Of a DNA stretch of 64,000 bases, positions 175-61,144 are shown in pieces. Numbering within the stretch: the stretch's first letter is position 1; each line of letters begins with the position of its first letter. The notes below the pieces were generated by a model. The model worked only from the letters and a program-made list of their open reading frames with translations, was not told where the DNA came from and searched no databases. The position numbers were made by a program, and so were the translations under genes. The stretch is from Bacteroidota bacterium (GTDB lineage Bacteria; Bacteroidota; Bacteroidia; 2-12-FULL-35-15): contig CANNHN010000005.1 of the NCBI GenBank assembly GCA_947504725.1, forward strand, positions 37,704 to 101,703, given 5' to 3'.

Positions 175-1374
175 ATGCCAAAAGTATCTTCCAAAGGCAA
201 TTCAATGCCTTCGTCACCCATTCGTAAATTAGTTCCATTTGCAGAAGCAGCAAAAAAACGCGGGACAAAAATATATCATTTGAATATCGGTCAGCCCGAT
301 ATTGAAACGCCTGAGGCAATGCTCAACGCGATTAAGAATGCTGATATTAAAGTGTTGGAATATTCTCATTCTGCAGGAATCGAATCGTACAGAAAAAAAT
401 TAGCAGGATATTACGGAACCTTCAATATAAATATTGATGAAAATGATATTATTATTACAACAGGTGGTTCTGAAGCAATCTCCATTGCAATGATGGCTTG
501 CTTTAATGATGGAGATGAAATTATTATTCCAGAACCTTTTTATGCAAACTACAATGGATTTTCTTGTGCTGCTGATGTAAAAGTAGTTCCGGTAAAATCA
601 TTTATTGAAACAGGTTTTGCATTGCCACCAATTGCTGAATTCGAAAAATTAATTACTCCCAAAACAAAAGGGATTATGATTTGTAACCCCGGAAATCCTA
701 CTGGATACTTGTATTCACGAGAAGAGTTGGAATCATTAAAGCAATTGGTGTTGAAATACGATTTATTTTTATTGAGTGATGAGGTGTACCGCGAATTTTG
801 TTACGATGGAAAAGAATATGTTTCTGTAATGCATCTATCCGGAATTGATAATAATGTGATTTTATTGGATTCAATCTCAAAACGTTATAGTGCTTGTGGT
901 GCTAGAATCGGAGCGCTGATTTCGAAAAACAAAGAAGTGATGTCGACTGCAATGAAATTTGCACAAGCACGATTGAGTCCACCAACATTCGGACAAATAG
1001 GAGCTGAAGCGGCTTTGAATACTCCTAAAGAATATTTTGATAAAGTACAAAAGGAATACGTATCCCGAAGAGATTTTGTTATTGAAGCATTGAATAAAAT
1101 GGAAGGAGTGTTTTGTCCGAATCCTAGTGGAGCTTTTTATTGCATCGCTCGTTTGCCGATTGATAATTCAGATAAATTTTGTCAATGGTTATTAGAATCG
1201 TTTCAACACGATGGTAAAACTGTGATGTTGGCTCCAGCAACAGGCTTTTATTCCACACCTGGCGCAGGAACAAATGAAGTTCGTTTGGCTTATGTATTAA
1301 ATAAAGAAGATTTGAAAAATGCGATGATTTGTCTGCAAGAAGCCTTGAAAGTCTATCCAGGAAAGATAAACTAA
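175..1374 (+). CDS. PLP-dependent class I/II aminotransferase (aspartate aminotransferase-like)
   Basis: NIGQPD, NPGNPTG, SDEVY and DSISKRYSACGARIG (PLP lysine) motifs. Confidence 0.93.
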   Translation: MPKVSSKGNSMPSSPIRKLVPFAEAAKKRGTKIYHLNIGQPDIETPEAMLNAIKNADIKVLEYSHSAGIESYRKKLAGYYGTFNINIDENDIIITTGGSEAISIAMMACFNDGDEIIIPEPFYANYNGFSCAADVKVVPVKSFIETGFALPPIAEFEKLITPKTKGIMICNPGNPTGYLYSREELESLKQLVLKYDLFLLSDEVYREFCYDGKEYVSVMHLSGIDNNVILLDSISKRYSACGARIGALISKNKEVMSTAMKFAQARLSPPTFGQIGAEAALNTPKEYFDKVQKEYVSRRDFVIEALNKMEGVFCPNPSGAFYCIARLPIDNSDKFCQWLLESFQHDGKTVMLAPATGFYSTPGAGTNEVRLAYVLNKEDLKNAMICLQEALKVYPGKIN

Positions 1375-34807: not shown

Positions 34808-35524
34808 TTACATCAACATAATCGCTGTACCAGCACCCAATAAAATCATCACAAATTTTATGAGGTTGAAACGGTGATTTTCACTTGATTCGAAAAGGAT
34901 GGTGGTGGAGATGTGTAAGAAAATACCTACTACCACCGCCATTATTTTATCGAAGTAAATTGATAAATCCAAAATCATGTTTTGTCCGATGGCGTAACTG
35001 ATGAATGTTCCCAAAGGAGTAACCAGCGCAAAAACGACAAGCCATATTACTGCATTTCTTTTGCTAATATGAGATGCCAATAACATCGTCATTAATGCCA
35101 CTGCAATTGGAATGTTGTGCATTACAATGCCAATTAGTAAAGAGTTGTGTGAGTTGGCTTCTGTAGCTGCCAAAGGCATGCCTTCTAAAAACGAGTGAAT
35201 GGAAAGACCAATCATCATCGCGAAAGGAAATGCATTCTGATGATGATCGTGTTTGTGCACATGAATATGTCCGTGCTCAATTCCCTCTGAGAAAAACTCC
35301 AACAAAATCTGAGCAAAAAATCCAATTAAAATGTAGATGCCGACATTCTCTGTTCCAGACGAATAGATTTCGGGAATAAGATGCAAAACGCTTATCGCGA
35401 AAAGGAATGCTCCACTAAAAGAAAGTAAAAGTTTTAAATTTTTACTACTAATGTTAATGAATAGCACACTCACTCCGCTAATGATAACAGATAAAAAAAG
35501 AATGATGTACATTAAATAATTCAT
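34808..35524 (-). CDS. ZIP family metal transporter
   Basis: LHLIPE, His-rich loop HGHIHVHKHDHH, HSFLEGMP, HNIP, GIFLHI. Confidence 0.92.
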   Translation of the reverse strand: MNYLMYIILFLSVIISGVSVLFINISSKNLKLLLSFSGAFLFAISVLHLIPEIYSSGTENVGIYILIGFFAQILLEFFSEGIEHGHIHVHKHDHHQNAFPFAMMIGLSIHSFLEGMPLAATEANSHNSLLIGIVMHNIPIAVALMTMLLASHISKRNAVIWLVVFALVTPLGTFISYAIGQNMILDLSIYFDKIMAVVVGIFLHISTTILFESSENHRFNLIKFVMILLGAGTAIMLM

Positions 35525-35530
35525 AGTGTT

Positions 35531-36274
35531 TTAATCTTTTCTAGCAATTATAATCAACCTCTCCGAACTCTTCTCATCAAACTCCTCCAGCTTATAATTT
35601 CCCCGCAAATGTACTATTTTAAGTTTATTTGCTTCAAAGTATTTCTCAAAATCATTCAGTATTAGTGCTTTTACGCACTCTTCAAATTGATATGCTTTCC
35701 CTTTATCTTTAAACTGAATTTTTTTTACGATAAAATTATCTTCAACCGTTTTGCTGATTTTAAATTCAATTCCATCAATAATTTTTTCTTCCTGGTAAGC
35801 AAGATTTGAAATCGCCTTTTTCGAATTCATAAAGTCGAGCACAAAAAATCCTCCTGGCTTCAATGCTTTGCATGCTGCATTTACAACTGCTTGGTCATCT
35901 CGTTCTTGCTCAAAATATCCGAAGCTTGTAAACAGATTTACAACCATATCAAAATAATTTGTGCGAAATAGTTTTCGCATATCGTGTGTGTAAAAATGTA
36001 GTGTTTCGTTTTCTGAAGTCTTTGCAGAAGTAATGCTTTTTTCGGAAAGATCAATTCCTGTTACATCAAATCCTTTTTTGTTGAGGTAAATCGAATGTCG
36101 ACCTTTTCCACAACCTAAATCTAAAAAACGGTTTGTTTTTTCTGGTTTCAGCAATTGAATTAGATTATCAATAAATAATTCAGCTTCCGAAAAATCTCTG
36201 TTTTTATACAAAATATGATAGTAAGGCGAGTCGAACCAGCATTCAAACCATTCAGGATGTTTATTTTTCGACAT
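35531..36274 (-). CDS. Class I SAM-dependent methyltransferase
   Basis: WFDSPYYHILY, LDLGCGKGRH, NLFTSFGYF. Confidence 0.92.
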   Translation of the reverse strand: MSKNKHPEWFECWFDSPYYHILYKNRDFSEAELFIDNLIQLLKPEKTNRFLDLGCGKGRHSIYLNKKGFDVTGIDLSEKSITSAKTSENETLHFYTHDMRKLFRTNYFDMVVNLFTSFGYFEQERDDQAVVNAACKALKPGGFFVLDFMNSKKAISNLAYQEEKIIDGIEFKISKTVEDNFIVKKIQFKDKGKAYQFEECVKALILNDFEKYFEANKLKIVHLRGNYKLEEFDEKSSERLIIIARKD

Positions 36275-36347: not shown

Positions 36348-37751
36348 ATGGCAAAAATCAATCAAATTACTTCCGTTGATTGGCAAACCGAACTAAGAGC
36401 TGCAGCTTTAAAGTATCATTTACTTATTGCTTGGGTGGCTGTAGGCTTGAATCCTATTTGGGCGATTGGTGACTATTTCAACAGCCCTTTTCATTTTATC
36501 GATTTCCTGATTTTTAGATTAGTAGTATCCTTCGTCACGCTAGTTGTTGTATTGTCTAAAGAAAAGCTTAGGAATCATACTGAATACATTGCTTTTATTC
36601 CTTTTGTTGGAATTTCTATTCAAAACGCATACATGTTTAGCGTTATGAATGTGGATGAATTACAAAAACATACATTCGCATATATAGCATTGTTTATTGG
36701 AGCTGGAATGTTTGTATTGTGGCGCCCGATATACTCAATAATGATCGTTGTTATATCTCTTTTAGCAAATGTTGTTTGTTTTTGGTTATTTGGACATTTA
36801 GCAATAGGGGATGTTTTGATTAATGGTGGTATGCTAACTTTATCAGTTGCATTGTTTACCATTTTGCTAATTTATACACGTACGAATCTTACCAAAAAAG
36901 AAATTATTGCCCGTCTGGCTTTGGCCGAATCCAATAATCTATTGGAGATTAAAAACGAAATTATTGAAGAAAAAAATAAAGACATCCGAGATAGTATTAA
37001 CTATGCGCAACGGATACAACAAGCAATTCTTCCTGCTGCCGAAAAAATAGATGCGGTTTTAAAAGATTATTTTATTTTATTTAAACCGAAGGATATTGTG
37101 AGTGGCGATTTTTATTGGCATACAGTTATAAATACAACTCCCCAAGATGGAACTCCATCGGAAAATATTGTAGTGATGGCAGCCGTAGATTGTACTGGAC
37201 ATGGTGTTCCTGGGGCGTTGATGAGTATTATTGGAAGTACCATCTTAAACCAAACGACTACTGCTGCAGCCGTAAATTCTCCTGCTGATGCACTTGGATT
37301 TTTGAATAAAGAAATCACCAAAACATTAAATTCGATAAAAGATGGAATGGACATGGCTTTGTGTGCAATCAATTTTGAAAAATTAGAATTGCAATACGCT
37401 GGTGCAAATAATCCATTATACATTGTGCGTCAAAAGCAATTTATAGAAGTAAAACCAGATAAGCTAGCGATTGGTGCAGATACAGAGGATTCTGCTGTGA
37501 AAGTGTTCACCAACCATTTAATCAAATTAGAAAAAGGAGATTCTGTCTATTTATTTACGGATGGTTATGCTGATCAGTTTGGTGGTCCGAATGGAAAAAA
37601 ATTCAAGTACAAAAAATTCCAAGAGTTATTAATTGAGATGCAAGATAATACGATGGAAGAACAAAAACACATTTTAAATTACCACCACGAATTGTGGAGA
37701 GGGACATTGGAACAAGTGGATGATATACTTGTAATTGGGATAAGAATTTGA
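36348..37751 (+). CDS. Membrane-bound PP2C (SpoIIE-type) Ser/Thr phosphatase
   Basis: About 6 TM helices, then SINYAQRIQ, KPKDIVSGDFYW, DCTGHGVPGA, DGMD, FTDGYADQFGG, DDILVIG; -7 box TAAATTTG at 36321-36328. Confidence 0.93.
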   Translation: MAKINQITSVDWQTELRAAALKYHLLIAWVAVGLNPIWAIGDYFNSPFHFIDFLIFRLVVSFVTLVVVLSKEKLRNHTEYIAFIPFVGISIQNAYMFSVMNVDELQKHTFAYIALFIGAGMFVLWRPIYSIMIVVISLLANVVCFWLFGHLAIGDVLINGGMLTLSVALFTILLIYTRTNLTKKEIIARLALAESNNLLEIKNEIIEEKNKDIRDSINYAQRIQQAILPAAEKIDAVLKDYFILFKPKDIVSGDFYWHTVINTTPQDGTPSENIVVMAAVDCTGHGVPGALMSIIGSTILNQTTTAAAVNSPADALGFLNKEITKTLNSIKDGMDMALCAINFEKLELQYAGANNPLYIVRQKQFIEVKPDKLAIGADTEDSAVKVFTNHLIKLEKGDSVYLFTDGYADQFGGPNGKKFKYKKFQELLIEMQDNTMEEQKHILNYHHELWRGTLEQVDDILVIGIRI

Positions 37752-37916
37752 CAGGTTATAAAGTATTTAGAGTAAAAAGAAAGAGAAGCGTTTTATTTAA
37801 TATAGATACTACCTCACATCTAATCACTCGTTTCCCAATCGCATGTCTATCCATACTACTCAATCTCGTAGTTGCTTTTCCCAAAATTTTATATCTTTAC
37901 TTCCAAATAATCGGTT

Positions 37917-40900
37917 TTGAATAAATTTTACTCTAAATATTTATATTCCTTATTCGTTATAACACTTTTTTTTGGTGTTGTAAATTCTGTACATTCCCAA
38001 GAATTTAAATTCACTCACATCACTTCAGAGCAAGGCCTTTCTATGGGTGTTGTTAATTGTGTTTTGCAAGATAGTAGAGGTTTTATGTGGTTTGGTACTC
38101 AAGATGGATTGAATAAATATGATGGTTATAACATCACTGTATATAAGAATAACCAAATTGATTCCAATTCTCTTTCCAATAATTTTATCAATACTTTATA
38201 CGAAACTAAAAACGGTGAACTTATTATTGGAACCAATGGTGGTGGATTTGATGTTTACAATTTAAGTTCGGGAAAGTTTACACATCACATCGGTTTACAA
38301 AGCAATAAAAATAGTCTCAGCAATAACAATGTAAAATCCATTTTAGAAGATAAAGAAGGGTTGTTGTGGATTGGTACAGATGATGGATTGAATTCGTATA
38401 ATCAAAAAACAAAAAGATTCACCCGTTATCTTAATGACAATAAAAATGCAAATTCTATTTCTAATAACAATGCCTGGTGTTTGTTGGAAGCAACTGATGG
38501 TAAGTTGTGGATTGGTACGTATGGCGGAGGATTAAATTCTTTTGATAAGCGAACAGGGAAGTTTGAACATTTTAATCAGTTTAACAATTCAGGTAGTTTA
38601 TTGTATGAAAACATTAATCTAATTAGAACGATTTATGAAGATAAAGAAGGAATGTTTTGGATTGGAACTTTCGGTGAAGGCGTTCAGATTTTTGATCCGC
38701 ATTCAGGAAAATTTATCAAAAATATTAGAAATTCAGAATCGGATCCCAATTCATTAAGCAACGATAGAGTCTTGAGCATTAATGAAGATATGAATGGAAT
38801 CTTGTGGATTGCAACATATGGTGATGGAATAAATTTATACAATAAAAAAACGGGTAGATTCAGAAGCATTTTACATGATGAAAAAATTCTTACAGGTTTA
38901 AGTAGTAATCAGATAAAATGTATTTACCATGATAAAGTAGGTTCGGTTTGGATTGGAACAGAAGGTGGCGGAGTAAATGCTCATTTTAGAGCATCTAGCA
39001 AGTTTAAGTTTTTTACGAATCATTCAGGATCAGCAGAAGGCTTAAAAAGTAATATCGTTTATGCATTACTAGAAGACAGGGATGGTCTTTTGTGGATTGG
39101 AACAGGTAGGGGGGGCTTGTCAACCCTCGACAGAGAGACGAATACCTATCAACATTATCCTCAATTATCCAAAGGTGCAAATGAATCAATTCTTTCTTTG
39201 TGCGAAGATTCAGATGGGATTATATGGGTTGGGACATGGGGGAATGGCTTGTACTCATATAATAAAAAAACAAAAGAAATTATTTCTTATCCCGAATTTA
39301 AAGAAGTAAATGCTGGGACTATCGTTTCTGTTTTTGAAGATGCAAATGGTAACATTTGGGTAGGAACATATGGAGCAGGGGTGTTTTTTTACAATAAAGC
39401 GAGTACCAATTTCACTAAGTATGATAGTAGTAATGGGCTAAGCATTAATAATATTTATAATATATATCAGGATAGTAAAAAAAATATTTGGATTGCTACT
39501 GATGGTGGAGGAGTTGTTAAATATAATTCTGAATCAAATGTTTTTAAAACGTATAATCGAGATGAAATGCTCAATAGTATTAGTTCAAATTCCGTTAATT
39601 GTTCTTATGAAGACAAAGAAGGAAATATGTGGTTTGGGACAACGAATGGGTTGAATAAGCTAGATGTGAAAACTGGAAAATTCGAAGCGTATTTTGAAAA
39701 AGATGGTTTGCCGAATGATTTTATTTATTCATTGCTTCCTGATAGCAAAGGTAATTTATGGATGAGCACTAACAAAGGTGTTTCAAAGTATAATCCTAAA
39801 ATAAAAAATGAAAACGGTGCTGCTTTTAGAAATTATGATGTGAATGATGGTTTGCAAGGATTAGAGTTTAATCAAGGGGCTTATCATCAATGTGAAGATG
39901 GGGAAATATTTTTAGGAGGAGTAAATGGATTCAATGTTTTTTACCCAGATAAAATCCAAGACAATCCCAATGTTCCTCAAATACATATTATTTCCTATAA
40001 ACGTTTTGGTAAAGAAGTGCTTTTGGATACTTTAATTTATGATAAACAATATTTAGAACTAACGTATAAACAGAATTTTTTCTCATTTGATTTTGTTGCA
40101 TTGGATTATCAAATGCCTGGAAAAAACAAATACTCCTACATGTTGGTAGGCGTTGATGAAGATTGGTCGCCACCAAGTACACAGCGTTACGCAAGTTACA
40201 CTGAATTGAGTGGAGGTGATTACATTTTGCGAGTACGTGGAGCAAATAATGATGGGACATGGAACAATGAAGGAGTCACACTTCACATTCGTATTAATCC
40301 CCCATTTTGGAAAACGAAATGGTTTTACACACTTTGTGTTGTTTTAGTCATTGGTGGATTTTGGGGTTTCTTGAAATACAGAACAAGTTCGATTAAGCGC
40401 GAAAATAAAATTCTTGAAGAAAAAGTTGAAGAACGAACGCAAGAATTAGCTCAAAAAAACAAGGATATTACCAGCAGTATTCAGTACGCTAAACGAATTC
40501 AATTGGCTATTTTGCCTCCTTTGGAACAGATTTTCAAACATTTCCCAGAATCGTTTGTGTTATATAAACCTAAGGATATTGTGAGTGGAGACTTTTATTG
40601 GTTTGGAGTGAAAGATGGTAAGAAGATAATTGCAGCGGTTGATTGCACTGGTCACGGTGTTCCAGGTGCATTTATGAGTATGATCGGGCATAACTTGTTG
40701 AATCAAATTATTAGCGAAAATGGCATTACTCAGCCCGATGAAATTTTGAATGCCTTGCACCGAGGGGTTCAAGCAGCCTTAAAACAAGGAACAAATGTGG
40801 TGGATACGAGTGATGGAATGGATGTAGCGATTTGTTGTATTGATACCGCAAACAATGAATTGAAGTATGCAGGTGCTTATCGACCTTTATTTATTGTAAA

Positions 40901-41219
40901 TGGGGTAAAATTCGACAAAGTAGAAGCAGATAAAAACCCAATAGGTGGTTCTCAATTGGATGCGGATCGTAAGTTTACCGCTCATAGCATTAAAATTAAC
41001 AAAGGTGACACATTCTATATGGCATCGGATGGTTATGCCGACCAATTTGGTGGTGAAAAAGGTAAAAAATTCATGGTTAAACGATTCAATGAATTGATGT
41101 TAGAAATGCAGTCACAGAGCATGGAAGAGCAATGTATAACGTTGGATGAAAAGTTTGAAAACTGGCGAGGCTCTTACCAGCAAATTGATGATATTTTGGT
41201 AATCGGAATAAGATTTTAA
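37917..41219 (+). CDS. Periplasmic beta-propeller (Reg_prop) + Y_Y_Y + TM + PP2C phosphatase
   Basis: About 14 'ED..G.LWIGT..GG' repeats, YTELSGGDYILRVRG, one TM, PP2C motifs as in 36348-37751. Confidence 0.93.
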   Translation: MNKFYSKYLYSLFVITLFFGVVNSVHSQEFKFTHITSEQGLSMGVVNCVLQDSRGFMWFGTQDGLNKYDGYNITVYKNNQIDSNSLSNNFINTLYETKNGELIIGTNGGGFDVYNLSSGKFTHHIGLQSNKNSLSNNNVKSILEDKEGLLWIGTDDGLNSYNQKTKRFTRYLNDNKNANSISNNNAWCLLEATDGKLWIGTYGGGLNSFDKRTGKFEHFNQFNNSGSLLYENINLIRTIYEDKEGMFWIGTFGEGVQIFDPHSGKFIKNIRNSESDPNSLSNDRVLSINEDMNGILWIATYGDGINLYNKKTGRFRSILHDEKILTGLSSNQIKCIYHDKVGSVWIGTEGGGVNAHFRASSKFKFFTNHSGSAEGLKSNIVYALLEDRDGLLWIGTGRGGLSTLDRETNTYQHYPQLSKGANESILSLCEDSDGIIWVGTWGNGLYSYNKKTKEIISYPEFKEVNAGTIVSVFEDANGNIWVGTYGAGVFFYNKASTNFTKYDSSNGLSINNIYNIYQDSKKNIWIATDGGGVVKYNSESNVFKTYNRDEMLNSISSNSVNCSYEDKEGNMWFGTTNGLNKLDVKTGKFEAYFEKDGLPNDFIYSLLPDSKGNLWMSTNKGVSKYNPKIKNENGAAFRNYDVNDGLQGLEFNQGAYHQCEDGEIFLGGVNGFNVFYPDKIQDNPNVPQIHIISYKRFGKEVLLDTLIYDKQYLELTYKQNFFSFDFVALDYQMPGKNKYSYMLVGVDEDWSPPSTQRYASYTELSGGDYILRVRGANNDGTWNNEGVTLHIRINPPFWKTKWFYTLCVVLVIGGFWGFLKYRTSSIKRENKILEEKVEERTQELAQKNKDITSSIQYAKRIQLAILPPLEQIFKHFPESFVLYKPKDIVSGDFYWFGVKDGKKIIAAVDCTGHGVPGAFMSMIGHNLLNQIISENGITQPDEILNALHRGVQAALKQGTNVVDTSDGMDVAICCIDTANNELKYAGAYRPLFIVNGVKFDKVEADKNPIGGSQLDADRKFTAHSIKINKGDTFYMASDGYADQFGGEKGKKFMVKRFNELMLEMQSQSMEEQCITLDEKFENWRGSYQQIDDILVIGIRF

Positions 41220-41318
41220 ACTATATCGCTCCATTTTCGACATATTTTTGAGAAATTGCAAAAAATACCTATATTTGATGTTAGGATAAAACATTGAGAA
41301 ACTAAAAAAACCAATAAC

Positions 41319-42143
41319 ATGAAACGTATTCTATATTCATCACTTTTATTTGTTTCTGCAGTTACTGCATTAACTCTTAGTTCTTGTAAAAAAGAAGATC
41401 CAGATACGGAAACGCAATCAGCTATTGATAATAGTGTTTGCGAAGGAGAATTTACTGGAAGATTGGGAATAATCAATAGTATAGCTATCAAAGAACAAGG
41501 AGTAAAATCAATGAGAGCAATAGGTCAACCGATTATTTCATTTGTTGCCGCTGATACTCTAGATGGTTTTCCAATCACAATGTATCTTGATTATGGAACA
41601 GGAACAACAGATCCTGTTGATGGAAAAACACGAAAAGGACAAGTAACGGCAAAATTTAGTAATTCTTGGGATGCTTTAGGAACAAATGTAACGGTTAAGT
41701 TAATCAACTATTACGTTAAAACGGCTACTGGTGCTAATTTCGTTCAATATGCATGCGATAGTATAATGATTGGTCACCCTACTGCAGCAACGTTCACTAA
41801 TGATATTATTGGTGGAAAATGTGTTGCTGCTACTTGGAACCTAGAATGGTCTTGTAATAGAACTTTAACGCAAACAGCTGGTTTGGGTGATACGCTTTTA
41901 ACGAACGATGTTTATCAGTTTACAGGTAATGCAGTAGGAAAGACTCGCGAGGGTAAAGGATATACTGTAAACGTGGTTTCTCCAGTTACTAAGAGCATGT
42001 CTTGTACTTGGATTCAATCTGGTAGAATTGATTTAACGCCAGAAGGAAAAGCTACTCGTACCGTAGATTACGGAACTGGTCTTTGTGATGATCAGGCAAC
42101 GCTTACTATCAATGGTAATTCTTTTGCTTTTACCATGAATTGA
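41319..42143 (+). CDS. Uncharacterised lipoprotein, probably surface exposed
   Basis: Lipobox LSSC followed by KKED (acidic export-signal-like); DYGTG..D motifs; own -7 box TATATTTG at 41270-41277. Confidence 0.8.
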   Translation: MKRILYSSLLFVSAVTALTLSSCKKEDPDTETQSAIDNSVCEGEFTGRLGIINSIAIKEQGVKSMRAIGQPIISFVAADTLDGFPITMYLDYGTGTTDPVDGKTRKGQVTAKFSNSWDALGTNVTVKLINYYVKTATGANFVQYACDSIMIGHPTAATFTNDIIGGKCVAATWNLEWSCNRTLTQTAGLGDTLLTNDVYQFTGNAVGKTREGKGYTVNVVSPVTKSMSCTWIQSGRIDLTPEGKATRTVDYGTGLCDDQATLTINGNSFAFTMN

Positions 42144-42230
42144 TGAATCCATGAAAATCCTTATTTATTAAGGTTTTTCGAAAGATTGCAAGGATAAATT
42201 AATAAGGAGTAAATAATTAGTGTTTGCTGT

Positions 42231-42259
42231 TTGATTAATAAAACTTATTTATATATTTG
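42231..42259 (+). promoter_or_regulatory. siaBC promoter: TTG-N18-TATATTTG
   Basis: TTG 42231-42233 and exact -7 box 42252-42259. Confidence 0.65.
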
Positions 42260-42310
42260 CTTTAATTAACTAAACAGAATTGTCAGCTTTATCGATTTAA
42301 CTTAGTGTTT

Positions 42311-42856
42311 ATGATGTTAGATATTTACGATTTTTATGATAAAATGGAGCGTAATAATATTATGCTCTCTTTTAAAGGTGATATCACTTCTGAATTACTT
42401 ACCTCCATATTGCAAATAATGGAATCCAAATTGGATAATTTGCAAGAAGAACCTAAAATTAAAAAGAAAGTTTACAACGTATTGGTTGAGTGTCTTCAAA
42501 ACCTGTATCATCATATGGATGAAGTTGCTCCTGAAGAAAATGATGCTATTCGATCTGCAATCTTCATGATTGGCAAGTTGGATAATCAATACAACATTGT
42601 AACAGGAAATTATATTAAAAAAGAAAACGTAGAAGGATTAAAGAAACGTTTAGAGGATATAAATTTATTATCGAAAGAAGAATTAAAGGAATATTACAAA
42701 GCTGTTTTAAATAATGGTGAAATGTCAATGAAAGGTGGAGGTGGATTAGGAATGATTGATATCGCGCGTAAAACAGGAGAGAAATTGAATTTTAACTTTT
42801 CTCCAGTAGACGATAAATTTTCATTTTTCAGTTTAAATATTAAAATATCACAATAA
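42311..42856 (+). CDS. siaB: SiaB family protein kinase (DUF6272)
   Basis: FKGDIT.ELL, LVECLQNLYHH, TGNYI, ELKEYYK, GGGLGMIDIARKTG. Confidence 0.88.
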   Translation: MMLDIYDFYDKMERNNIMLSFKGDITSELLTSILQIMESKLDNLQEEPKIKKKVYNVLVECLQNLYHHMDEVAPEENDAIRSAIFMIGKLDNQYNIVTGNYIKKENVEGLKKRLEDINLLSKEELKEYYKAVLNNGEMSMKGGGGLGMIDIARKTGEKLNFNFSPVDDKFSFFSLNIKISQ

Positions 42857-42866
42857 AAATAAGATT

Positions 42867-43247
42867 ATGGAAACAATTTCAATTGAAGGAACACCAAAAA
42901 CACCAACAATCATTTTTGATACTGGAAAAGGCTTTTTGGAAATTAAGGGACGCTCTATACCTGAAAACTCTATTGAGTTTTACAAGCCATTAGTGGATTG
43001 GTTAGAAAAATATGCTGCGAAACCTCAGGCTGCTACAAACGTAAATGTTCAATTAGAATATTTTAATACAAGTTCATCTAAATGTATTTTAGATGTATTT
43101 AAGAAATTGGAAGCTATTAACAAAGGTGGAAGTACAGTTGTTATTAACTGGTACTATGAAGAAGATGATGAGGATATGTTAGAAGCGGGTGAAGATTATC
43201 AAGCAATCATCAATGTGCCTTTTAAAATGGTTCAAGTAGCTGAATAA
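42867..43247 (+). CDS. siaC: SiaC family phosphoprotein (DUF1987)
   Basis: T.KTP.I.FD, GRSIPEN, LEYFNTSSSK (Thr68), WYYEEDDEDM.E.GED. Confidence 0.92.
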   Translation: METISIEGTPKTPTIIFDTGKGFLEIKGRSIPENSIEFYKPLVDWLEKYAAKPQAATNVNVQLEYFNTSSSKCILDVFKKLEAINKGGSTVVINWYYEEDDEDMLEAGEDYQAIINVPFKMVQVAE

Positions 43248-43268
43248 TTTTTCTTTAAATTAATATTT

Positions 43269-43312
43269 AAAGCGAGATGAAGTGCATTGCATTTTGTCTC
43301 GCTTTGTCTTTT
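43269..43312 (+). terminator. Terminator after siaC
   Basis: AAAGCGAGA...TCTCGCTTT stem plus GTCTTTTT. Confidence 0.65.
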
Positions 43313-43421: not shown

Positions 43422-44195
43422 TTATACATTCCCCATCAAATACATTGCACTCATTGTTGGAGACGAGCTACCACCTTTCTTTTCCAATGTTACTGCAAAA
43501 GCCTGCGCCCCTACAATTGTTTTCATTTTTTGAAGAGAAGCTGAATCGCTCTTCATGTCAAATACTCCAGCATCAACAGCTTTGCCGTCAACTATAGCCC
43601 AAAGTTGATATTGTTTATCGTCTGACGGCATTGGTAAAGAATTTACATTAATGTATACGTCCTTTGTATTTTGATTCCAATATAAAGCTGCCAGTGAGGT
43701 AGGTGACATTTCCATTCCCTTTAGCATAATTTTTTTGTTTTCAGGGTGCATTAAAACAGCCATTTCTTGTGCCATTTCTCCATATGATTTTGATTGTGAT
43801 TCAAAATCGGTAGCATATTGTTCATTTTTTAAAACTATTGAAGCAATTTGTTCTTCATTGTCTTTTATATTGTTAAGTAATATAACATTGTAAATAGAGC
43901 TCCCTATTAATAATGCAATAGATGCGGCTAAGAGCCATGATCTATTTTTGTTCGGCTGGAGAGTTAAAACTGTGTTTTTAGTGAAATCTATTTCACTTTG
44001 TATTTTTTGTTTTAATGCCGAAGGAGGATTTTTAGAAGCATGACTCATTAGTGTTCCTTCAATAAGTTCAATCTCCGCTAACACTTCAGCGTGTTTTCTT
44101 GACATTGCTTCAACTTCCGCTCGTTCTTTTTCAGAAAGGAGCCCAAGTACGTAGCTTTCAATAATACCTGATGATATGTAATCTTGAATATTCAA
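43422..44195 (-). CDS. Anti-sigma factor (RskA/anti-sigma-K type)
   Basis: YISSGIIESYVLG.LS..ER.EVE, TM, P.DKQYQLWAI..GK.VDAG, FAVTLEK.GGS..PT. Confidence 0.92.
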   Translation of the reverse strand: MNIQDYISSGIIESYVLGLLSEKERAEVEAMSRKHAEVLAEIELIEGTLMSHASKNPPSALKQKIQSEIDFTKNTVLTLQPNKNRSWLLAASIALLIGSSIYNVILLNNIKDNEEQIASIVLKNEQYATDFESQSKSYGEMAQEMAVLMHPENKKIMLKGMEMSPTSLAALYWNQNTKDVYINVNSLPMPSDDKQYQLWAIVDGKAVDAGVFDMKSDSASLQKMKTIVGAQAFAVTLEKKGGSSSPTMSAMYLMGNV

Positions 44196-44806: not shown

Positions 44807-47800
44807 TTATCGTCCTTTTTTTCTGCTTAATTTACTAAACAAAATTTCTAAACCTGTGATTAATTTTTTAAGCATGTCGAAATAAAGTGTTATTGCTAAT
44901 ACTAGCGACATTCCCCAGATTACAAGAATATTTACATTATATGTATCGTAATATTTGCCAAAGAATTTTTTACGTGGCGCAAAAAAGTGCGCTCTTCCCA
45001 TATCAGAATCTACTGGATCTAAATAAATAGGGTCAATTTTTTGAACATAAGCTCCATCTAAATCCAAAATACGATAAGGCGTATTTCTATTTGTTACCAA
45101 GTCTTGTAAACTTTCATTTTCATATTCGTTTTTGTCTTTAATATATTGTAAACGAGAAACGCTATCCTTATTCATTAAGCTAACTTCTTTTTCTCTTAAA
45201 GTAGTAGCTCGTTTGAAATTGTTCAAATACACATTTCTGAGTGTGTTGTTTGTGAAGTCTCGCACCTGATTTGCAACAGTGGGGCTAAATGAGACAATAT
45301 TCAAGTTGTCAAATCCACCACATTTTAATTTCTCGTTTCCTGGTACATTTATTTCTTTGCGTATTTCATTTTGAATCATCTTTAAAGCATCTTCTACTTC
45401 TTTTCTGCTTTCTGCTTTTTTGTAATTCGATTCACAAAAATCAATTTTTTTAGCAATCTCAGTTAACCAATAATCTTTTTTGTAAGTAGCAACGTGAATT
45501 GCTTTGTCGAATTTGTATGTTTTTTTGGTGAATTTGTTGTCTTTAAATTGCTTTACTGCCAATGCTTCAAATGCCCATCTAGAAGCCATCATATCGCCAA
45601 CCAACGGCACAACACTTTGTGAGGTAATGATTGGGTTTAATTTATCGAATTTCACCATTACACCACTAAACAATAATTGTGGAATAATTAAAATAGGAAT
45701 TAATATATATATTGTAACTGCTGAATTGAAACTTGAAGAAATGTTTAATCCTAACATATTAGCAAAACAGAATGTGCTAAATAATAAAATCCAATATTGG
45801 AAAGTCATTCCTTGAATTTCTAAAACGTAATTTCCAACTAATACAAACAAAATGGCTTGTATTGATGATAAAGAAAACATGATAATTATTTTTGACCACA
45901 AGTAGCTTCCCTTACTTAAGTTTAAAAAAGATTCGCGTTTTTGAATTTTTCTGTCTCTAATAATCTCTTCTGCACTCACTGTTAGTCCAATAAATAAAGA
46001 AACTACCACAGACATAAACATATAGATAATAATGTTTTCGTTTTCACGGAATGTGTACCCTACTTTATTTGATAAATCTAGATTTACAAATTTAATGAAG
46101 TATGCAAGGATGAAAGCAAGTAAAGGTGCTTCTAAAAAATTGATAGAAATGTACTGTGTGTTTGTCATTTTCGACAAGACATCACGTGTGATAAATACTT
46201 TGAATTGTTTGAATTTATTTGGAATTCTAAATGTGCTTTCTGGAATTTCAGTAATGTTTTCAACTTCCTCAATCGATTTCTCAATCTTCTCTCTGTAATG
46301 AACGTTCCATTCTGATGGAGAAACTTTTCTGTTACGAGTTATGTTACCGTACTCGTCCAATACTTTTGATTCAATAATATTGAATACTTGTTCGGGATTT
46401 ACGTTACCACATTCTATACATTCACTTTCGTTACTGTTTACATGATTAACAACAGTTTTAAAATAGATAACAGAATCTACAGGATTGCCATAATAAATTG
46501 GATATCCACCAACATCGAGAATCATCAACTTGTCGAACATTTTAAAAATGTCTGACGATGGCTGATGGATAACTACAAAAACCAACTTGCCTTTTAAAGC
46601 AAGTTCTTTAAGTAAGTCCATAATGTTTTCTGAGTCACGAGATGACAAACCAGAAGTTGGCTCATCAACAAATAAAACAGATGGTTCACGTATTAACTCT
46701 AAAGCAATATTCAGTCGCTTACGTTGTCCCCCTGAAATTGTTTTTTCTAATGGGCTACCTACTTTTAAATCTCTTGTTTCAATTAATCCAATGCTTGTTA
46801 AAACATCAGTTACCATTTGAGTAACAACTGCGTCTGTTTTATTTCCGAAACAAAGTTTAGCATTGTAAAATAAATTTTGGAAAACGCTCAACTCCTCAAT
46901 TAATAAATCGTCCTGTGATACGTGACCAATTACTCCTTCAACTTTTGACTTTTCGGAATGTATGTTGATTCCATTGATTTTTACCGAACCACCACTCGGA
47001 ATTTCCATTCCGTTCAAAACGTTTAGTAGGGTAGATTTTCCGGCCCCTGAGCCTCCCATTATTCCTATAAGTTTTCCGGAATCTTCACTGAAATTGATAT
47101 CGCGTAAACCTAATTTCCCACCTTTAAATTTAAATTCTAAGTTTTTTACAGCAAATGATACTTTTGCTTTTGAAGTATCACTCATAAAAGAACTTAAAAT
47201 ATCACTATAATAAACAGGTTTTACTTTTGAACTTCTAAGAGATGATCCAGGAGTTAAGATGAAAACTTTTCCTTGAGTTAGTAATTGTCCATTTAGTAAA
47301 ATATCGCTTTTGCCATAATATAATAAGGCATACATATTCACACTTTGAATCCACAAAATGCGTGCTTGTCCAGTTACACCTTCAGCGTAAATATGTTTTG
47401 TTTCTTTTAAGTTGTGTGATGTTTTGTTGTCGATGATAAGAATTTGTGGTGATTCTGGAATATTCTCTATACCAGCTCTCACAAATTGCATAGAACGTTT
47501 AAACTCTTCATCATCAATGTTAAATGTTTCCGCAACCGTAGTTACGAATTCCATTTCTTGTTCAGCGATTTCAGTGTTGGAATTAATAAATTCAATTAAA
47601 CGAAGTAATACAACAACTTTTTGAACTTGCGTAAGCTCTCCATTTATTTGGGTACAAATCTTTAAAATTTTAACAGAATTAAGGGAAGTGCGTTTTGCTG
47701 TTCCATCTTTCTTTTTTGTAACTTGGTGGTGAGCTTCAAGAAATTCATCAAAAATTGCCAAGTATTGTTCAACAAGCTCTTGATTTAATTGTTGTTTTAA

Positions 47801-47899
47801 AAATGATTGTACAATTAAACGTCCATTGTCATCAATGCCATCAACTCTTGCAATAATTGCAAACATTTGCATGAGGGCCTTTAATATTCTTTCACTCAT
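44807..47899 (-). CDS. TerB-like domain + ABC ATPase + ABC-2/ABCG permease fusion with a large extracytoplasmic domain
   Basis: N-terminal helical TerB-like region; GGSGAGKS, ISGGQRKRL, FVDEPTSGL, VIHQPS (White/ABCG-like); TM block with EEIIRDR.I..RE, PQLLFSG, SRWAFEAL. Confidence 0.88.
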   Translation of the reverse strand: MSERILKALMQMFAIIARVDGIDDNGRLIVQSFLKQQLNQELVEQYLAIFDEFLEAHHQVTKKKDGTAKRTSLNSVKILKICTQINGELTQVQKVVVLLRLIEFINSNTEIAEQEMEFVTTVAETFNIDDEEFKRSMQFVRAGIENIPESPQILIIDNKTSHNLKETKHIYAEGVTGQARILWIQSVNMYALLYYGKSDILLNGQLLTQGKVFILTPGSSLRSSKVKPVYYSDILSSFMSDTSKAKVSFAVKNLEFKFKGGKLGLRDINFSEDSGKLIGIMGGSGAGKSTLLNVLNGMEIPSGGSVKINGINIHSEKSKVEGVIGHVSQDDLLIEELSVFQNLFYNAKLCFGNKTDAVVTQMVTDVLTSIGLIETRDLKVGSPLEKTISGGQRKRLNIALELIREPSVLFVDEPTSGLSSRDSENIMDLLKELALKGKLVFVVIHQPSSDIFKMFDKLMILDVGGYPIYYGNPVDSVIYFKTVVNHVNSNESECIECGNVNPEQVFNIIESKVLDEYGNITRNRKVSPSEWNVHYREKIEKSIEEVENITEIPESTFRIPNKFKQFKVFITRDVLSKMTNTQYISINFLEAPLLAFILAYFIKFVNLDLSNKVGYTFRENENIIIYMFMSVVVSLFIGLTVSAEEIIRDRKIQKRESFLNLSKGSYLWSKIIIMFSLSSIQAILFVLVGNYVLEIQGMTFQYWILLFSTFCFANMLGLNISSSFNSAVTIYILIPILIIPQLLFSGVMVKFDKLNPIITSQSVVPLVGDMMASRWAFEALAVKQFKDNKFTKKTYKFDKAIHVATYKKDYWLTEIAKKIDFCESNYKKAESRKEVEDALKMIQNEIRKEINVPGNEKLKCGGFDNLNIVSFSPTVANQVRDFTNNTLRNVYLNNFKRATTLREKEVSLMNKDSVSRLQYIKDKNEYENESLQDLVTNRNTPYRILDLDGAYVQKIDPIYLDPVDSDMGRAHFFAPRKKFFGKYYDTYNVNILVIWGMSLVLAITLYFDMLKKLITGLEILFSKLSRKKGR

Positions 47900-47925
47900 T
47901 TTGCTTTGTGATTAAGTAGTTTTAG

Positions 47926-47963
47926 AAAAAAAAGGCATTAATACCGCAGTAATTAATGCCTTT
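47926..47963 (-). terminator. Stem-loop with U-tract between the 144-aa gene and the ABC gene
   Basis: AAAGGCATTAAT...ATTAATGCCTTT 12-bp stem next to an A-tract. Confidence 0.7.
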
Positions 47964-47982
47964 CAAATAAACAGTTTGAAAA

Positions 47983-48417
47983 TTATTTTTGTTGTCTGAA
48001 GCCAATTAATAAAACGGCTCTTCCAGAGCCTTGAGCTCCACCACTTAATTTTGCTTCAACAACACAATCAAGTGTGTTAGATATGTTGAAATCCCAATAT
48101 GGAGCATTCTTAAATTCGCTATTTGTAAATAATAAATTTCTTTCTGTGTCATAAACTGAGAAAATTAAATTTCCATCTGACAAACCGCTACAAGCAGCAA
48201 TACGATATAATGTTCCACCGTAAAGTGTTGTATGGAATTCTGCAGTTTCATCTGTGTTCATTAATAAAGCTCTGTATTGTTGACCATCAGAAATAAACTT
48301 ACTTTCTAAGTGTCTTGCACATTGATTAGCAATTGTATCCGCAATTTGAGCTGATGCGCTGTTTATAGTAATGAATCCACTAACAACTAATACTATTTTT
48401 AAAATTCCTTTTTTCAT
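47983..48417 (-). CDS. Secreted hypothetical protein (144 aa)
   Basis: Signal peptide ending ASAQ; C...L...FISDGQ.YRA, YRIAAC, WDF motifs. Confidence 0.8.
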   Translation of the reverse strand: MKKGILKIVLVVSGFITINSASAQIADTIANQCARHLESKFISDGQQYRALLMNTDETAEFHTTLYGGTLYRIAACSGLSDGNLIFSVYDTERNLLFTNSEFKNAPYWDFNISNTLDCVVEAKLSGGAQGSGRAVLLIGFRQQK

Positions 48418-48469
48418 TTCTGTTATAAATTTTTATTTAACGATTGAGTAGTGTATAACTGAACCGAAA

Positions 48470-49366
48470 TTATCCTACAATTTGACTTCTAATAGATTTT
48501 ACCTTTTGAGTAATTGACTCAATTTGCTCAGGAGTGATGTTTACTTCTGATTTACTTGTGATGGTTGTTGTTTTCTTTTCAGCATCAGTAGTAGGTTTTA
48601 CATATGTATATTTAAATTCTACACCATCAAAAACGGATGATAAGTCATTTAAATTATCAATAAACTCTGTGTATTCAGGTTGACTGTAGAATTGAGTCAA
48701 TAATTTGATTAAACTTTGTAAAGAAGTTTTTTGCTCAGCGATTCTGCGCTTTACATCTTCGTTCGGCTTAGTTTTATAAACATTTGTTGCAAAGTGTAAA
48801 CTTTCTAACCATCCACCTGCAAGCACTAATCCACTTACATCGCTACGGTCGTTGTTTTTTAAATAAGCATCACTTGAGCGATAAGCAACTCCAACCAATA
48901 CCAACATTGAATCTTTATTTCCTAAATTTTTAGCAAAACGTTCAATTGTATTCGCATCAAATGCGCCTGAAACACCTAATTCATCAGCTAGTTTTTTAGC
49001 GGAATTTAAATATCCAATCGCATCCTGGTTTTGATCATAAATTGTAACATAACCTAAATCTGCGCCATAAATACCCAAGTTCAACGCTTTTGAAAAGTTG
49101 GTTGAATAATCAGAGGCTTTATTTGATGGATTCAGAATCTCTTTGCTGTATGCGGCACCGCTTCCTTTAATCAAGAATGCTGTTTGAATTGGTGAAGGGA
49201 TACTGAAAATTTCTCCATTAACATTCAAAATTGTTGTTTGCGTGCTGTCAACTGGAGGTAAAGCGTCTGGATCTTTTGCGCCATCGCTTCCACAGCCAAC
49301 TGCAAATAGTGCAGAAACCGATAGTAATAAAAAGGTTCCTCTAAATGTGATAAATTTCAATCTCAT
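48470..49366 (-). CDS. Uncharacterised helical lipoprotein (paralog of 27978-28853)
   Basis: Lipobox AVGC; IPSP, SKALNLGIYGADLGY, GGWLESL, EQK.SL; -7 box TATTTTTG at 49407-49414. Confidence 0.82.
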   Translation of the reverse strand: MRLKFITFRGTFLLLSVSALFAVGCGSDGAKDPDALPPVDSTQTTILNVNGEIFSIPSPIQTAFLIKGSGAAYSKEILNPSNKASDYSTNFSKALNLGIYGADLGYVTIYDQNQDAIGYLNSAKKLADELGVSGAFDANTIERFAKNLGNKDSMLVLVGVAYRSSDAYLKNNDRSDVSGLVLAGGWLESLHFATNVYKTKPNEDVKRRIAEQKTSLQSLIKLLTQFYSQPEYTEFIDNLNDLSSVFDGVEFKYTYVKPTTDAEKKTTTITSKSEVNITPEQIESITQKVKSIRSQIVG

Positions 49367-58843: not shown

Positions 58844-61144
58844 TTAAATACGAATTCCAATAACACAGATGTCGTCCACTTGTTCTAAATGGGATTTCCA
58901 TTTATTTATAGCTGACTTAAGCAAGTCTCCTTGTTCGACCAAGGGTAATTTGGCTATGCTTAACAATAATTCTTTTAATTGTTTATACATGAATTTTTTA
59001 CCATTCGGACCTCCGAATTGATCAGCCATTCCATCTGTGAAAGTGTAAACTACATCCTCTTTTTGTAACTGAATGGTATGTTGAGTAAAAGAAACAGAGT
59101 CTTTGTCATGTTTCCCAACCGGCATTTTGTCTGGTAAAAAAGCAAGGATTTCATTTCCTCTTGCAATCCAAACGGGATTGTTGGCAGAAGAGTATGTTAG
59201 TTGCTTCTTTGAAAAATCAAAACTGATCAGACTACAATCCATACCGTCTTTTCCACCTTCTTCACTTCCATCATTCGATAAATGATGAATGATTCTTGCA
59301 CGTGTATAGTTTAAGATTTCATTTGGTGCAGTTAATTGTTGTCCATTCACTGCTTCGTTCAAGCATGAAATATTTAGCATGCTCATGATGGCGCCTGGTA
59401 CTCCATGTCCCGTGCTATCTGCCGTTACCAATGCAAATTGGCCGTTTTTTAATTCACTAGCCCAATAGAAATCTCCACTAACAATATCTTTTGGTTGGAA
59501 AAAAATAAAATGATCTGGTAAATTAGTATTTAAGAATTGTTTACTAGCTAGAAGCGAATGTTGAATCCGTTTCGCGTAATTAATACTGTCGGTGATTTCG
59601 CGGTTCTTTTCCTCAACCAATATTTTTTGTTTTTCAATGTATATGTTTTTTTCTTCCAACAAGCTGTTTGCTTTCTGTTTTTGACGATAGCTGCGATAAG
59701 CAAAAACAGCAAAACATAAAATTAAAAATCCTACAAAACCAACAAAGTATAATATAATGGTTTGTTTTCTTCGTTCTGCAATGTTTAATGCATCCTTTTT
59801 TTCCTGCTCTGCCTTTACAATAGATTCTTTTTTGTCGAATTCATATTGCATTTGTGATTCAACAAGTTTTTTTGAGGTCTCCTGATTTACTAGGCTATCT
59901 CTGTATAGAATAGCCATTTTATGATGTTCGAAAGCTTGTTTCCAAAATTTTCCAGGACCGCTGTTTGGTGTTTGAAATCCTGCTGCCTGTGCACTGTCTA
60001 ATTCAGCTAAACCGCTGTATGTATCTTTAATATAATCTTTGGCTCCAATTTCTTTTGATAGTGTTAATCCTTTGTCAAGATATTCTAACGCTTCTTTGAA
60101 TTTCTTTTGCTTTGTGAAAATTACTCCAATGTTAGTGTAGCAATTAGCGATGCCATTTTTATCTTCAAGTTCCTCTGCAAGTTTTAAAGAAGCGAGTTGA
60201 TTTTTTAAAGCATCTTCATAATTTCCTTTGTTTTTATAAATAATTCCAATGTTATTATACGACATAGCGATTCCTCTTTTGTCGCCTATCTCTTCCATTA
60301 TCTTTAATGAAGCCAGTTGATTTGCAAGTGCTTCGGTGTAGTTGCCTTGCAAGTAATGTATGATTCCAATGTTGTTGTAGGAAGACCCGATTCCATTTTT
60401 ATCACCGATTTCTAATCTGATTTTCAAAGAAGCCAATTGATTTTTTAATGCTTCTTTATAGATATTTTGTGAATAATAGATGTTGCCAATATTGTTGTAA
60501 CAATTAGCAATTCCTTGTTTGTCGCCTAATTCTTCTCTGATTTTTAAGGATGAAAATTGATTTTTTAAAGCATCTGAATAATTTCCTTGTAAGTGGTATA
60601 CGTTGCCAATATTCATGAAACAAATTGCCATTCCATTTTTGTCATTTATTTCTGTTCTGGTTTTTAGAGAAGACAGGTGATTCTTTAATGCTTCGGAGTA
60701 GTTGCCTTGAGCATAATAGATATTTCCTATGTTGTTATAAGATCCTGCTATTCCTTCTTTATCGCTAATTTCTTCCCTAATTTTTAATGAGATTGAATAA
60801 TTTTTTAAAGCATTTTTGTAATCTCCTTGATTGTCGAAAATAATTCCAATATTATTATACGCTTTGCCTTCGCCTTTTTTGAACCCTATTTTTTTTGAAA
60901 CAGCCAATGCGTCATTGGCATATTGATTTGCGCTTGAGTAATCTCCTGTATTCCTTATTTCTCTGCAAAGATTATTGAGGGTGTTGACTTTTGTAGTGTC
61001 TTCTTTGCTAACTTTTATAAAGGATTTAAGTGAGTCGATAGTTTGATTTTGTGCAGAAAAATTTGAATTAAAAAAAATGAATAACATAATCAAAAGAAAG
61101 TTTTTCAAATCTATCTTTCTGTATATATAACTATGGTAATTCAT
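58844..61144 (-). CDS. Periplasmic TPR sensor + TM + PP2C phosphatase
   Basis: Signal ending SAQ; 40-aa repeats DK.GIA.SYNNIG.IY..QGNY..AL...L.SLKI.EE.G; TM; SINYAKRIQ, DIVSGDFYW, DSTGHGVPGA, DDICVIG. Confidence 0.93.
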   Translation of the reverse strand: MNYHSYIYRKIDLKNFLLIMLFIFFNSNFSAQNQTIDSLKSFIKVSKEDTTKVNTLNNLCREIRNTGDYSSANQYANDALAVSKKIGFKKGEGKAYNNIGIIFDNQGDYKNALKNYSISLKIREEISDKEGIAGSYNNIGNIYYAQGNYSEALKNHLSSLKTRTEINDKNGMAICFMNIGNVYHLQGNYSDALKNQFSSLKIREELGDKQGIANCYNNIGNIYYSQNIYKEALKNQLASLKIRLEIGDKNGIGSSYNNIGIIHYLQGNYTEALANQLASLKIMEEIGDKRGIAMSYNNIGIIYKNKGNYEDALKNQLASLKLAEELEDKNGIANCYTNIGVIFTKQKKFKEALEYLDKGLTLSKEIGAKDYIKDTYSGLAELDSAQAAGFQTPNSGPGKFWKQAFEHHKMAILYRDSLVNQETSKKLVESQMQYEFDKKESIVKAEQEKKDALNIAERRKQTIILYFVGFVGFLILCFAVFAYRSYRQKQKANSLLEEKNIYIEKQKILVEEKNREITDSINYAKRIQHSLLASKQFLNTNLPDHFIFFQPKDIVSGDFYWASELKNGQFALVTADSTGHGVPGAIMSMLNISCLNEAVNGQQLTAPNEILNYTRARIIHHLSNDGSEEGGKDGMDCSLISFDFSKKQLTYSSANNPVWIARGNEILAFLPDKMPVGKHDKDSVSFTQHTIQLQKEDVVYTFTDGMADQFGGPNGKKFMYKQLKELLLSIAKLPLVEQGDLLKSAINKWKSHLEQVDDICVIGIRI

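Follow-up and report, generated by a model that had tools for sequence, protein, structure and literature searches.

In Pseudomonas aeruginosa, the SiaABCD system (PA0172-PA0169) operates as a phosphorylation switch: the PP2C phosphatase SiaA and the kinase SiaB set the phosphorylation of SiaC at Thr68, and SiaC activates the diguanylate cyclase SiaD. SiaABC is so far known only as a regulator of this cyclic di-GMP (c-di-GMP) cyclase in Pseudomonas. Here we describe a related locus in a 64-kb stretch of DNA from a Bacteroidota bacterium (contig CANNHN010000005.1; the whole stretch is referred to as the window). Judged by its sequence, this locus is composed of SiaB-family and SiaC-family genes together with genes for SiaA-type PP2C phosphatases. 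As in Pseudomonas, siaB and siaC lie side by side, Thr68 of SiaC and the N67/S69 loop around it are kept, and the SiaA-type PP2C domain retains all metal-binding residues and is preceded by a signalling helix. Unlike in Pseudomonas, neither siaD nor any other GGDEF gene is found nearby, the sensor parts are unrelated to that of SiaA, two to three phosphatases are present instead of one, there is an additional, conserved lipoprotein gene, siaBC has a promoter of its own, and the SiaD-binding surface of SiaC is replaced. We propose, with a probability of roughly 60%, that the locus encodes a Bacteroidota version of the SiaB/SiaC partner switch with a non-cyclase target. That is, a near-invariant SiaC probably controls something other than a cyclase.

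Two other types of described system resemble parts of this locus. In RsbU/RsbP-RsbV-RsbW (Bacillus sigma-B) and SpoIIE-SpoIIAA-SpoIIAB, as could be the case here, many PP2C inputs converge on one STAS-like hub and one GHKL-type kinase. Unlike in those switches, SiaC belongs to PF09345 and SiaB to DUF6272, neither being STAS or HATPase_c by Pfam; the conserved module includes no sigma factor, and the phosphatases are membrane-bound, with their sensors in the periplasm. On the sensor side, Bacteroides hybrid two-component sensors (HTCS) such as BT4663 carry periplasmic Reg_prop/Y_Y_Y glycan-binding domains. One of the phosphatases described here, PP2C2, shares this periplasmic architecture, followed by a single transmembrane segment, but its output is a PP2C phosphatase and not a histidine kinase/receiver/AraC module. 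In the literature searched, no publication dealt with SiaB/SiaC, DUF1987 or DUF6272 from Bacteroidota. The suggestion that DUF1987 proteins regulate other proteins encoded in their neighbourhood had already been made by those who described the SiaC-SiaD structure (PMC8457831), so the idea of a different effector is not wholly new.

Species-representative genomes were scanned for close relatives of SiaC, and at least 564 such Bacteroidota genomes were found to carry the switch. The best 80 of these loci by SiaC similarity were retained, with neighbourhoods of 20 kb, and all gene-order counts given out of 81 refer to the window plus these 80. All of the best 80 are from Bacteroidota metagenome-assembled genomes, of freshwater, groundwater, soil, marine and gut-type lineages. 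In the window, a preliminary description made from the sequence had placed five co-directional genes at 36348-43247, encoding two PP2C sensor phosphatases, a lipoprotein, SiaB and SiaC. The list of open reading frames (ORFs) bears out all five, family matches were found for both phosphatases, SiaB and SiaC, and the product of 41319-42143 indeed has the signal peptide and LSSC lipobox of a lipoprotein. The features of the locus, with a third phosphatase gene further along the window, are as follows.

36348..37751, + strand: PP2C1, 467 aa; hydrophobic N-terminal domain, signalling helix and SiaA-type PP2C domain
37917..41219, + strand: PP2C2, 1100 aa; signal peptide, Reg_prop propellers, Y_Y_Y domain, one transmembrane segment, signalling helix and PP2C domain
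41319..42143, + strand: lipoprotein of an unannotated family, 274 aa; signal peptide and LSSC lipobox
42230..42259, + strand: siaBC promoter of the Bacteroidetes type, TTTG-N18-TATATTTG
42311..42856, + strand: SiaB-family Ser/Thr kinase (GHKL-like; NF038262, DUF6272)
42867..43247, + strand: SiaC-family phosphoprotein (STAS-like; PF09345/DUF1987), phospho-acceptor Thr68
43268..43306, + strand: intrinsic terminator of siaBC; 18-bp stem with 6 GC pairs, 3-nt loop, then the T-run TCTTTTTATT
58844..61144, - strand: PP2C3; tetratricopeptide (TPR) repeats, one transmembrane segment and SiaA-like PP2C domain

The SiaC protein matches positions 1-119 of the 120 in PF09345 with 154.3 bits (cut-off 24.5; 1.4e-45). 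Its alignment with P. aeruginosa SiaC (6kko_C; 1.7e-21) is free of gaps, with 34% identity (41 of 119 aligned residues), and places YFNTSS over YLNTSS. Since there are no gaps, Thr68 of the Bacteroidota protein falls on the Thr68 that is phosphorylated in P. aeruginosa, in the register that had been proposed for it. In P. aeruginosa SiaC, this phospho-acceptor is carried by the N-terminus of helix alpha2, and is flanked by N67 and S69. In an alignment of 78 Bacteroidota sequences, Y65, N67, T68 and S69 are all invariant, and conservation reaches 95% or more at 73 of the 126 positions, among them the entire helix alpha2 and the acidic helix alpha3 (YYEEDDEDMLEAGEDYQ).

This degree of conservation was compared with that of other proteins over the same pairs of genomes. 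The median identity is 79% for SiaC versus 71% for SiaB, 83% versus 43% for PP2C2, 82.5% versus 35% for the lipoprotein, and 79% versus 55% for the ABC exporter encoded downstream. Against two enzymes of central metabolism the values are 89.5% for SiaC versus 88.0% for class I aldolase, and 88.9% versus 86.5% for AccD; that is, SiaC is conserved at least as much as both in the same genomes. In loci of the Bacteroidales type, SiaC is 75-78% identical and SiaB only 37-50%, a difference that is striking even though the loci were selected by SiaC similarity.

The residues of SiaC that touch the SiaD stalk have been listed from the P. aeruginosa SiaC-SiaD structure (PMC8457831), and 10 of these 14 positions differ in the Bacteroidota protein (Q10P, D29R, Y31I, I71S, M75L, D79K, R103D, L107A, E110D and D114I). 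Three of the replacements, D29R, D79K and R103D, reverse the charge. The replaced residues are themselves fixed: at nine of the positions (29, 31, 71, 75, 79, 103, 107, 110 and 114) all Bacteroidota sequences agree, and P10 is found in 94% of them. A phospho-switch element that is kept, next to a partner face that is different yet fixed, is the best support at the sequence level for the same switch acting on a different effector.

Consistent with this proposal, no cyclase gene was detected. A GG[DE]EF pattern search over all ORFs of the window and the 80 related loci gave no match, and tblastn and phmmer searches of the same 1.31 Mb with GGDEF and EAL consensus probes gave nothing better than E = 1.3, the EAL probe lacking a control. 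The GGDEF consensus was written from recall and then validated on the PDB, where it recovered PleD (3e-42), WspR and SiaD (7e6g; 8e-38). The statement in the preliminary description that the window is free of GGDEF genes is thus upheld by all three methods. An Rfam scan of the window found neither a c-di-GMP riboswitch nor any other family.

The gene that adjoins siaC, siaB, does so in 80 of 80 loci, with a gap of 10 bp in the window. Its product matches the NCBIfam model NF038262, 'SiaB family protein kinase', over the full length (1-177 of 177; 172.3 bits, cut-off 85), as well as DUF6272 (2e-43), and its alignment with P. aeruginosa SiaB (6kko_A; 1.2e-16) runs from one end to the other. The motifs E..QN and GGGGLG, which we take to be the N-box and G-box of the GHKL fold, align with E..QN and GAGLG of the P. 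aeruginosa kinase. The gene had been placed at 42305-42856; the gene itself stands, but the start is to be moved, as the one conserved in an alignment of 11 loci is the ATG at 42311 and not the GTG at 42305.

None of the proteins reaches the score that would make it an equivalog of its Pseudomonas counterpart. SiaC scores 103.8 bits against NF038265 (cut-off 150), SiaB 98.7 bits against NF038264 (cut-off 225), and PP2C1, PP2C2 and PP2C3 score 169.5, 215 and 157.8 bits against the SiaA model NF038263 (cut-off 700 bits), with the match limited in all three to about positions 372-657 of the model, i.e., the signalling helix and the PP2C domain. The members of the locus are therefore to be regarded as family members rather than SiaABCD orthologues. 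The earlier proposal of the same phospho-switch with a different effector is partly sustained: the absence of a nearby cyclase, the replaced contact residues and the retained phospho-loop favour it, the kinase and phosphatase activities being predicted ones.

The SiaC and SiaB families have further members near some of these loci and in other architectures. A second, divergent SiaC paralogue (31-33% identity) is present in genomes of the Bacteroidales type, at 4679-5164 in locus L048, at 4765-5163 in L080 and about -5118 from siaC in L070; in L048 and L080 it lies just after guaA, with no adjoining SiaB gene. The gene of a classical STAS protein is located a few kb upstream. In L009, a second SiaB-like gene (35% identity) is convergent to siaC, at +479..961 from it on the - strand. 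Among 5144 representatives of the SiaC family, fusions comprise SiaB-SiaC, tandem SiaC, HEAT-repeat and zinc-ribbon proteins, and one probable gene-call artefact (SLT). Individual architectures are HEAT plus two SiaC (P0385), SiaB plus three SiaC (P0374), SiaB-SiaC (P0366) and a double zinc ribbon plus SiaC (P0506). None of the fusions among these representatives points, as a Rosetta stone, to an effector in Bacteroidota.

The phosphatases share their catalytic part and differ in what precedes it. PP2C1 has a C-terminal Pfam SpoIIE match (1.9e-18), matches positions 396-657 of the NCBIfam SiaA model (1.2e-49), and contains about 4-6 transmembrane segments in its N-terminal part; it is restricted to close relatives of the window (L001-L003, L005, L009 and L010). 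PP2C2 contains 13 Reg_prop repeats (3e-77), a Y_Y_Y domain (9e-17) and a C-terminal SpoIIE domain (1.4e-19), and matches positions 378-657 of the SiaA model (2e-63). Given the signal peptide, the sensor repeats and the single transmembrane segment at residues 801-819, its sensor is predicted to be periplasmic and its phosphatase cytoplasmic. The sole match of this phosphatase domain among PDB sequences is the PP2C domain of SiaA (6k4e_A; 9.4e-40), with the catalytic Asp and Gly residues aligned. Residues D457, D474, G477, D600, G601 and D653 of SiaA are strictly conserved (PMC7647112), and in the alignment with 6k4e_A they correspond to the PP2C2 motifs GDFY, VDCTGHG, DGYADQ and DDIL. The translation of PP2C1 likewise shows the metal-binding motifs GDFY, VDCTGHG, TDGYADQ and DDIL.

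The third phosphatase, PP2C3, is encoded 16 kb from siaBC. It has TPR repeats (TPR_12, 1e-49) that are predicted to be periplasmic, a transmembrane segment at residues 463-481 and a SpoIIE domain (1.6e-21), and matches positions 372-657 of the SiaA model at 4.2e-46. The window thus has three SiaA-like PP2Cs in 64 kb, and additional ones with other N-termini occur near siaBC in L002, L006, L014, L034 and L035. This suggests that several phosphatases may be inputs to one switch, with PP2C3 as a possible further input. Directly downstream of the PP2C3 gene is a full-length GldM/PorM homologue (56969-58564, - strand; TIGR03517, 321 bits). Its neighbours are the TPR-PP2C gene itself (58844-61144), upstream, and below it a 193-aa ORF on the + strand (56339-56920), so that it stands without flanking gldL or gldN. 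A small protein with a C-terminal sorting domain of the type IX secretion system (Por_Secre_tail) is encoded at 49699-50355 (- strand), and this, together with GldM, fits a Bacteroidota member bearing that secretion system.

Between the PP2C2 gene and siaBC is the lipoprotein gene. In 54 of 81 loci it immediately precedes siaB, with the same orientation, its median start being -1489 from siaC. The lipobox Cys23 is invariant in 68 homologues, in which C41, C168, C229 and C256 are also conserved; all of these homologues are named 'hypothetical', and no Pfam domain was found. The lipid-anchor cysteine is followed by KKEDPD, which presumably resembles the surface-export signal of Bacteroidota; we treat this likeness as a lead and not as a test. 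An AlphaFold (AF2) model based on the 68-sequence alignment predicts a long helix and, C-terminal to it, an all-beta domain, with a confidence (pLDDT) of 89.5. A Foldseek search of the PDB with this model returned no fold match (best E 0.13, TM-scores of at most 0.3), and the attempt to read the function of the lipoprotein from its structure was therefore dropped: the model is confident, yet nothing in the PDB resembles it. What suggests a role as co-sensor is the fixed place of the gene between that of a phosphatase with a periplasmic sensor and siaBC.

The proposal that siaBC has its own promoter and terminator is supported by a promoter block conserved in 11 loci and by a strong stem followed by a T-run. 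The promoter TTTG-N18-TATATTTG matches what we take to be the Bacteroidetes -33/-7 consensus. In 11 related loci, its -7 block, AAACTTATTTATATATTTGC, does not vary at all, in contrast to the divergent spacer and flanks around it. The + strand of the window contains just five copies of the composite motif, one of them ahead of the lipoprotein gene (41247) and another ahead of siaB (42230).

Across the 81 loci, the common module consists of a sensor PP2C, the lipoprotein, SiaB and SiaC, and a full-length Reg_prop-type phosphatase orthologous to PP2C2 is found upstream of the lipoprotein gene and siaBC in about 42. A neighbour-joining tree of SiaB plus SiaC splits in two, and the larger clade has the four-gene module PP2C2-Lipo-SiaB-SiaC. 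Class I aldolase and AccD, whose genes follow downstream in the same orientation in 24-26 loci, were considered as effectors and rejected; they are confined to one SiaB+SiaC clade and are therefore treated as lineage synteny. On the other side of the locus, genes for a ZIP transporter and a TehB-like S-adenosylmethionine-dependent methyltransferase (34808-36274, - strand) are divergent from the phosphatase genes and are still found with the siaBC block in 10-14 loci, the distant L084 included.

The sequences themselves show the family membership of every part, the retention of catalytic and phospho-acceptor residues, the operon signals, the conserved gene order, the lack of GGDEF genes nearby and the replaced SiaD contacts. 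The mechanism that we favour goes further, in that the enzyme activities, the direction of signalling, the action of several phosphatases on a single SiaC and the kind of output are inferred; it would be as follows. Inputs would be received by membrane sensor phosphatases, with either propeller/Y_Y_Y domains like those of HTCS, multiple transmembrane segments or TPR sensors; the propeller sensor of PP2C2 probably works together with the adjoining lipoprotein. The signal would pass via the SiaA-type signalling helix to the cytoplasmic PP2C domain, which would remove the phosphate from Thr68 of SiaC, and the constitutively co-expressed SiaB kinase would put it back. Unphosphorylated SiaC would then bind its target through the strongly acidic, phylum-invariant face of helices alpha2 and alpha3. 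This target would be no diguanylate cyclase, and would not be encoded in the operon.

A number of points weigh against this mechanism. The loci were picked by SiaC similarity, a choice that makes SiaC look more conserved than it is. The Bacteroidales/Marinilabiliales-like clade of the tree has neither a PP2C gene nor a lipoprotein gene at a distance of up to 10 kb from siaBC, and the pairing of phosphatase and substrate therefore relies on homology to SiaA and on the synteny of the other clade. The search for an effector among neighbouring genes and fusions did not identify a target. The cyclase search covered the window and 80 loci, which leaves room for a cyclase encoded elsewhere, and the output could run through SiaB instead.

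The alternatives differ mainly in the effector that they assume. De novo clustering of ORFs in the 81 regions revealed only one recurrent non-housekeeping neighbour in addition to the module, namely an operon on the opposite strand, convergent to siaC.

44807..49366, - strand: c11-c10-ABC operon; lipoprotein, small secreted protein and ABCG-type exporter
44807-47899, - strand: ABCG-type exporter, 1030 aa; ABC_tran, ABC2_membrane, TIGR00955 (246 bits)
47983-48417, - strand: c10, small secreted protein, no Pfam domain
48470-49366, - strand: c11, lipoprotein, no Pfam domain

The exporter has a C-terminal extension and an extra transmembrane segment (residues 989-1007). Its first 260 residues were modelled (pLDDT 84.7) as a cytoplasmic TerB-like helical domain, for which Foldseek finds the TerB-like protein PG1108, and a beta-sandwich, whose top Foldseek matches are all forkhead-associated (FHA) domains (CEP170, Rad53, KIF1A, MEK1 and Bdellovibrio DgcB; probability 0.9-0.99, E 0.03-0.3). 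Assignment to FHA by sequence was abandoned, there being no Pfam match at E up to 10, and what is left is a weak match at the level of the fold. The canonical GR...SxxH spacing is absent from this N-terminus, in which only LNGQ and GSS(I/L)R are conserved. A described counterpart is Rv1747 of M. tuberculosis, an FHA-ABC exporter that is regulated by Thr phosphorylation. The exporter described here is likewise an ABC-2/ABCG-type half-transporter, with a cytoplasmic N-terminal beta-sandwich whose best structural matches are FHA domains; unlike in Rv1747, the match here is a weak one of fold only, no phosphothreonine-binding motif is evident, and a TerB-like helical domain is added.

The exporter might thus be the effector, with SiaC docking onto its TerB/FHA-like N-terminus in one phosphorylation state and gating export. 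In addition to the FHA likeness, it can be argued that 20 of the 81 loci have the operon in convergent orientation to siaC, and that these loci fall on either side of the root in the tree built from SiaB and SiaC; that this adjacency is kept across at least four different upstream contexts; that a search begun with ABC homologues met it again in L084 (47% identity) and L086; and that a copy of the Bacteroidetes promoter motif seen at siaBC, at 49436, stands ahead of the operon. However, convergent genes are not co-transcribed, and the adjacency is missing from about two-thirds of the siaBC loci and from four of the six informative loci of the ABC-side search, siaC being adjacent in the other two. 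Moreover, RlmL, the methyltransferase and ZIP are retained in the same block; with such housekeeping-type neighbours, plain ancestral synteny suffices to explain the arrangement. As the FHA likeness itself is limited to weak E-values, lacking the Pfam match and the canonical spacing, we consider the exporter a weak candidate with a putative link to SiaC, and this alternative unlikely. Less probable again is that SiaC forms a phylum-wide hub on whose Thr68 many PP2Cs with periplasmic sensors act, with the exporter as one of its outputs and the FHA-like domain of the exporter reading phospho-Thr68, so that the phosphorylated form would be the active one, the reverse of Pseudomonas.

Somewhat below the exporter, and just above the hub, we rank a classical partner switch, in which SiaB, like RsbW or SpoIIAB, would hold a sigma or other transcription factor until unphosphorylated SiaC displaces it. 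The GHKL-type fold of SiaB resembles that of anti-sigma kinases and SiaC is STAS-like (PMC7647112), and a pair of genes for an extracytoplasmic function (ECF) sigma factor (SigK-like) and an RskA-type anti-sigma factor (43422-44739, - strand) lies directly downstream of siaC in the window. This pair was nevertheless rejected as the effector, as it has an anti-sigma factor of its own and is found next to siaBC in no loci but the window and its closest relatives. It constitutes an insertion between siaC and the ABC operon, seen also in L001 (partial) and L002; RskA-like genes occur in 3 loci, and where other loci have ECF genes nearby, the identity is no more than 26-29%. SiaB is also far less conserved than SiaC, which indicates that SiaC is the protein that touches a conserved target, and no sigma-binding role has been reported for SiaB in Pseudomonas.

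The least probable of the alternatives is that a diguanylate or other nucleotide cyclase elsewhere in the genome is still the target, acting in trans as in Pseudomonas. The search was confined to the window and related loci, and the phospho-loop that inserts between the helices of the SiaD stalk is conserved. A small number of GGDEF genes is present in some lineages of Bacteroidota, for which a general absence of diguanylate cyclases is an overstatement. Against a cyclase are the empty searches for GGDEF and EAL domains in the 1.31 Mb around 81 loci and for a riboswitch in the window, and the change of 10 of the 14 SiaD-contact residues, three of them with reversed charge. A review furthermore describes the Bacteroidetes as lacking diguanylate cyclases (PMC10745434). 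For these reasons, we favour a Bacteroidota SiaB/SiaC partner switch with a non-cyclase target over each of these alternatives.

The switch core known from c-di-GMP signalling in Pseudomonas is widespread in a phylum reported to be without diguanylate cyclases, where it is conserved like central metabolic enzymes and joined to sensor domains typical of glycan sensing in Bacteroidota. Genomes of this phylum encode many membrane SpoIIE/PP2C sensor proteins, and we know of none whose substrate has been identified; SiaC is a concrete candidate. The locus offers two more leads, a lipoprotein family without a match in the PDB and an unusual exporter family. Should the phylum-wide SiaC hub be true, it would be a protein-based substitute for c-di-GMP in a phylum largely without that second messenger. 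Identification of the target of SiaC would open up a signalling pathway in a phylum relevant to gut, soil and aquatic ecology.

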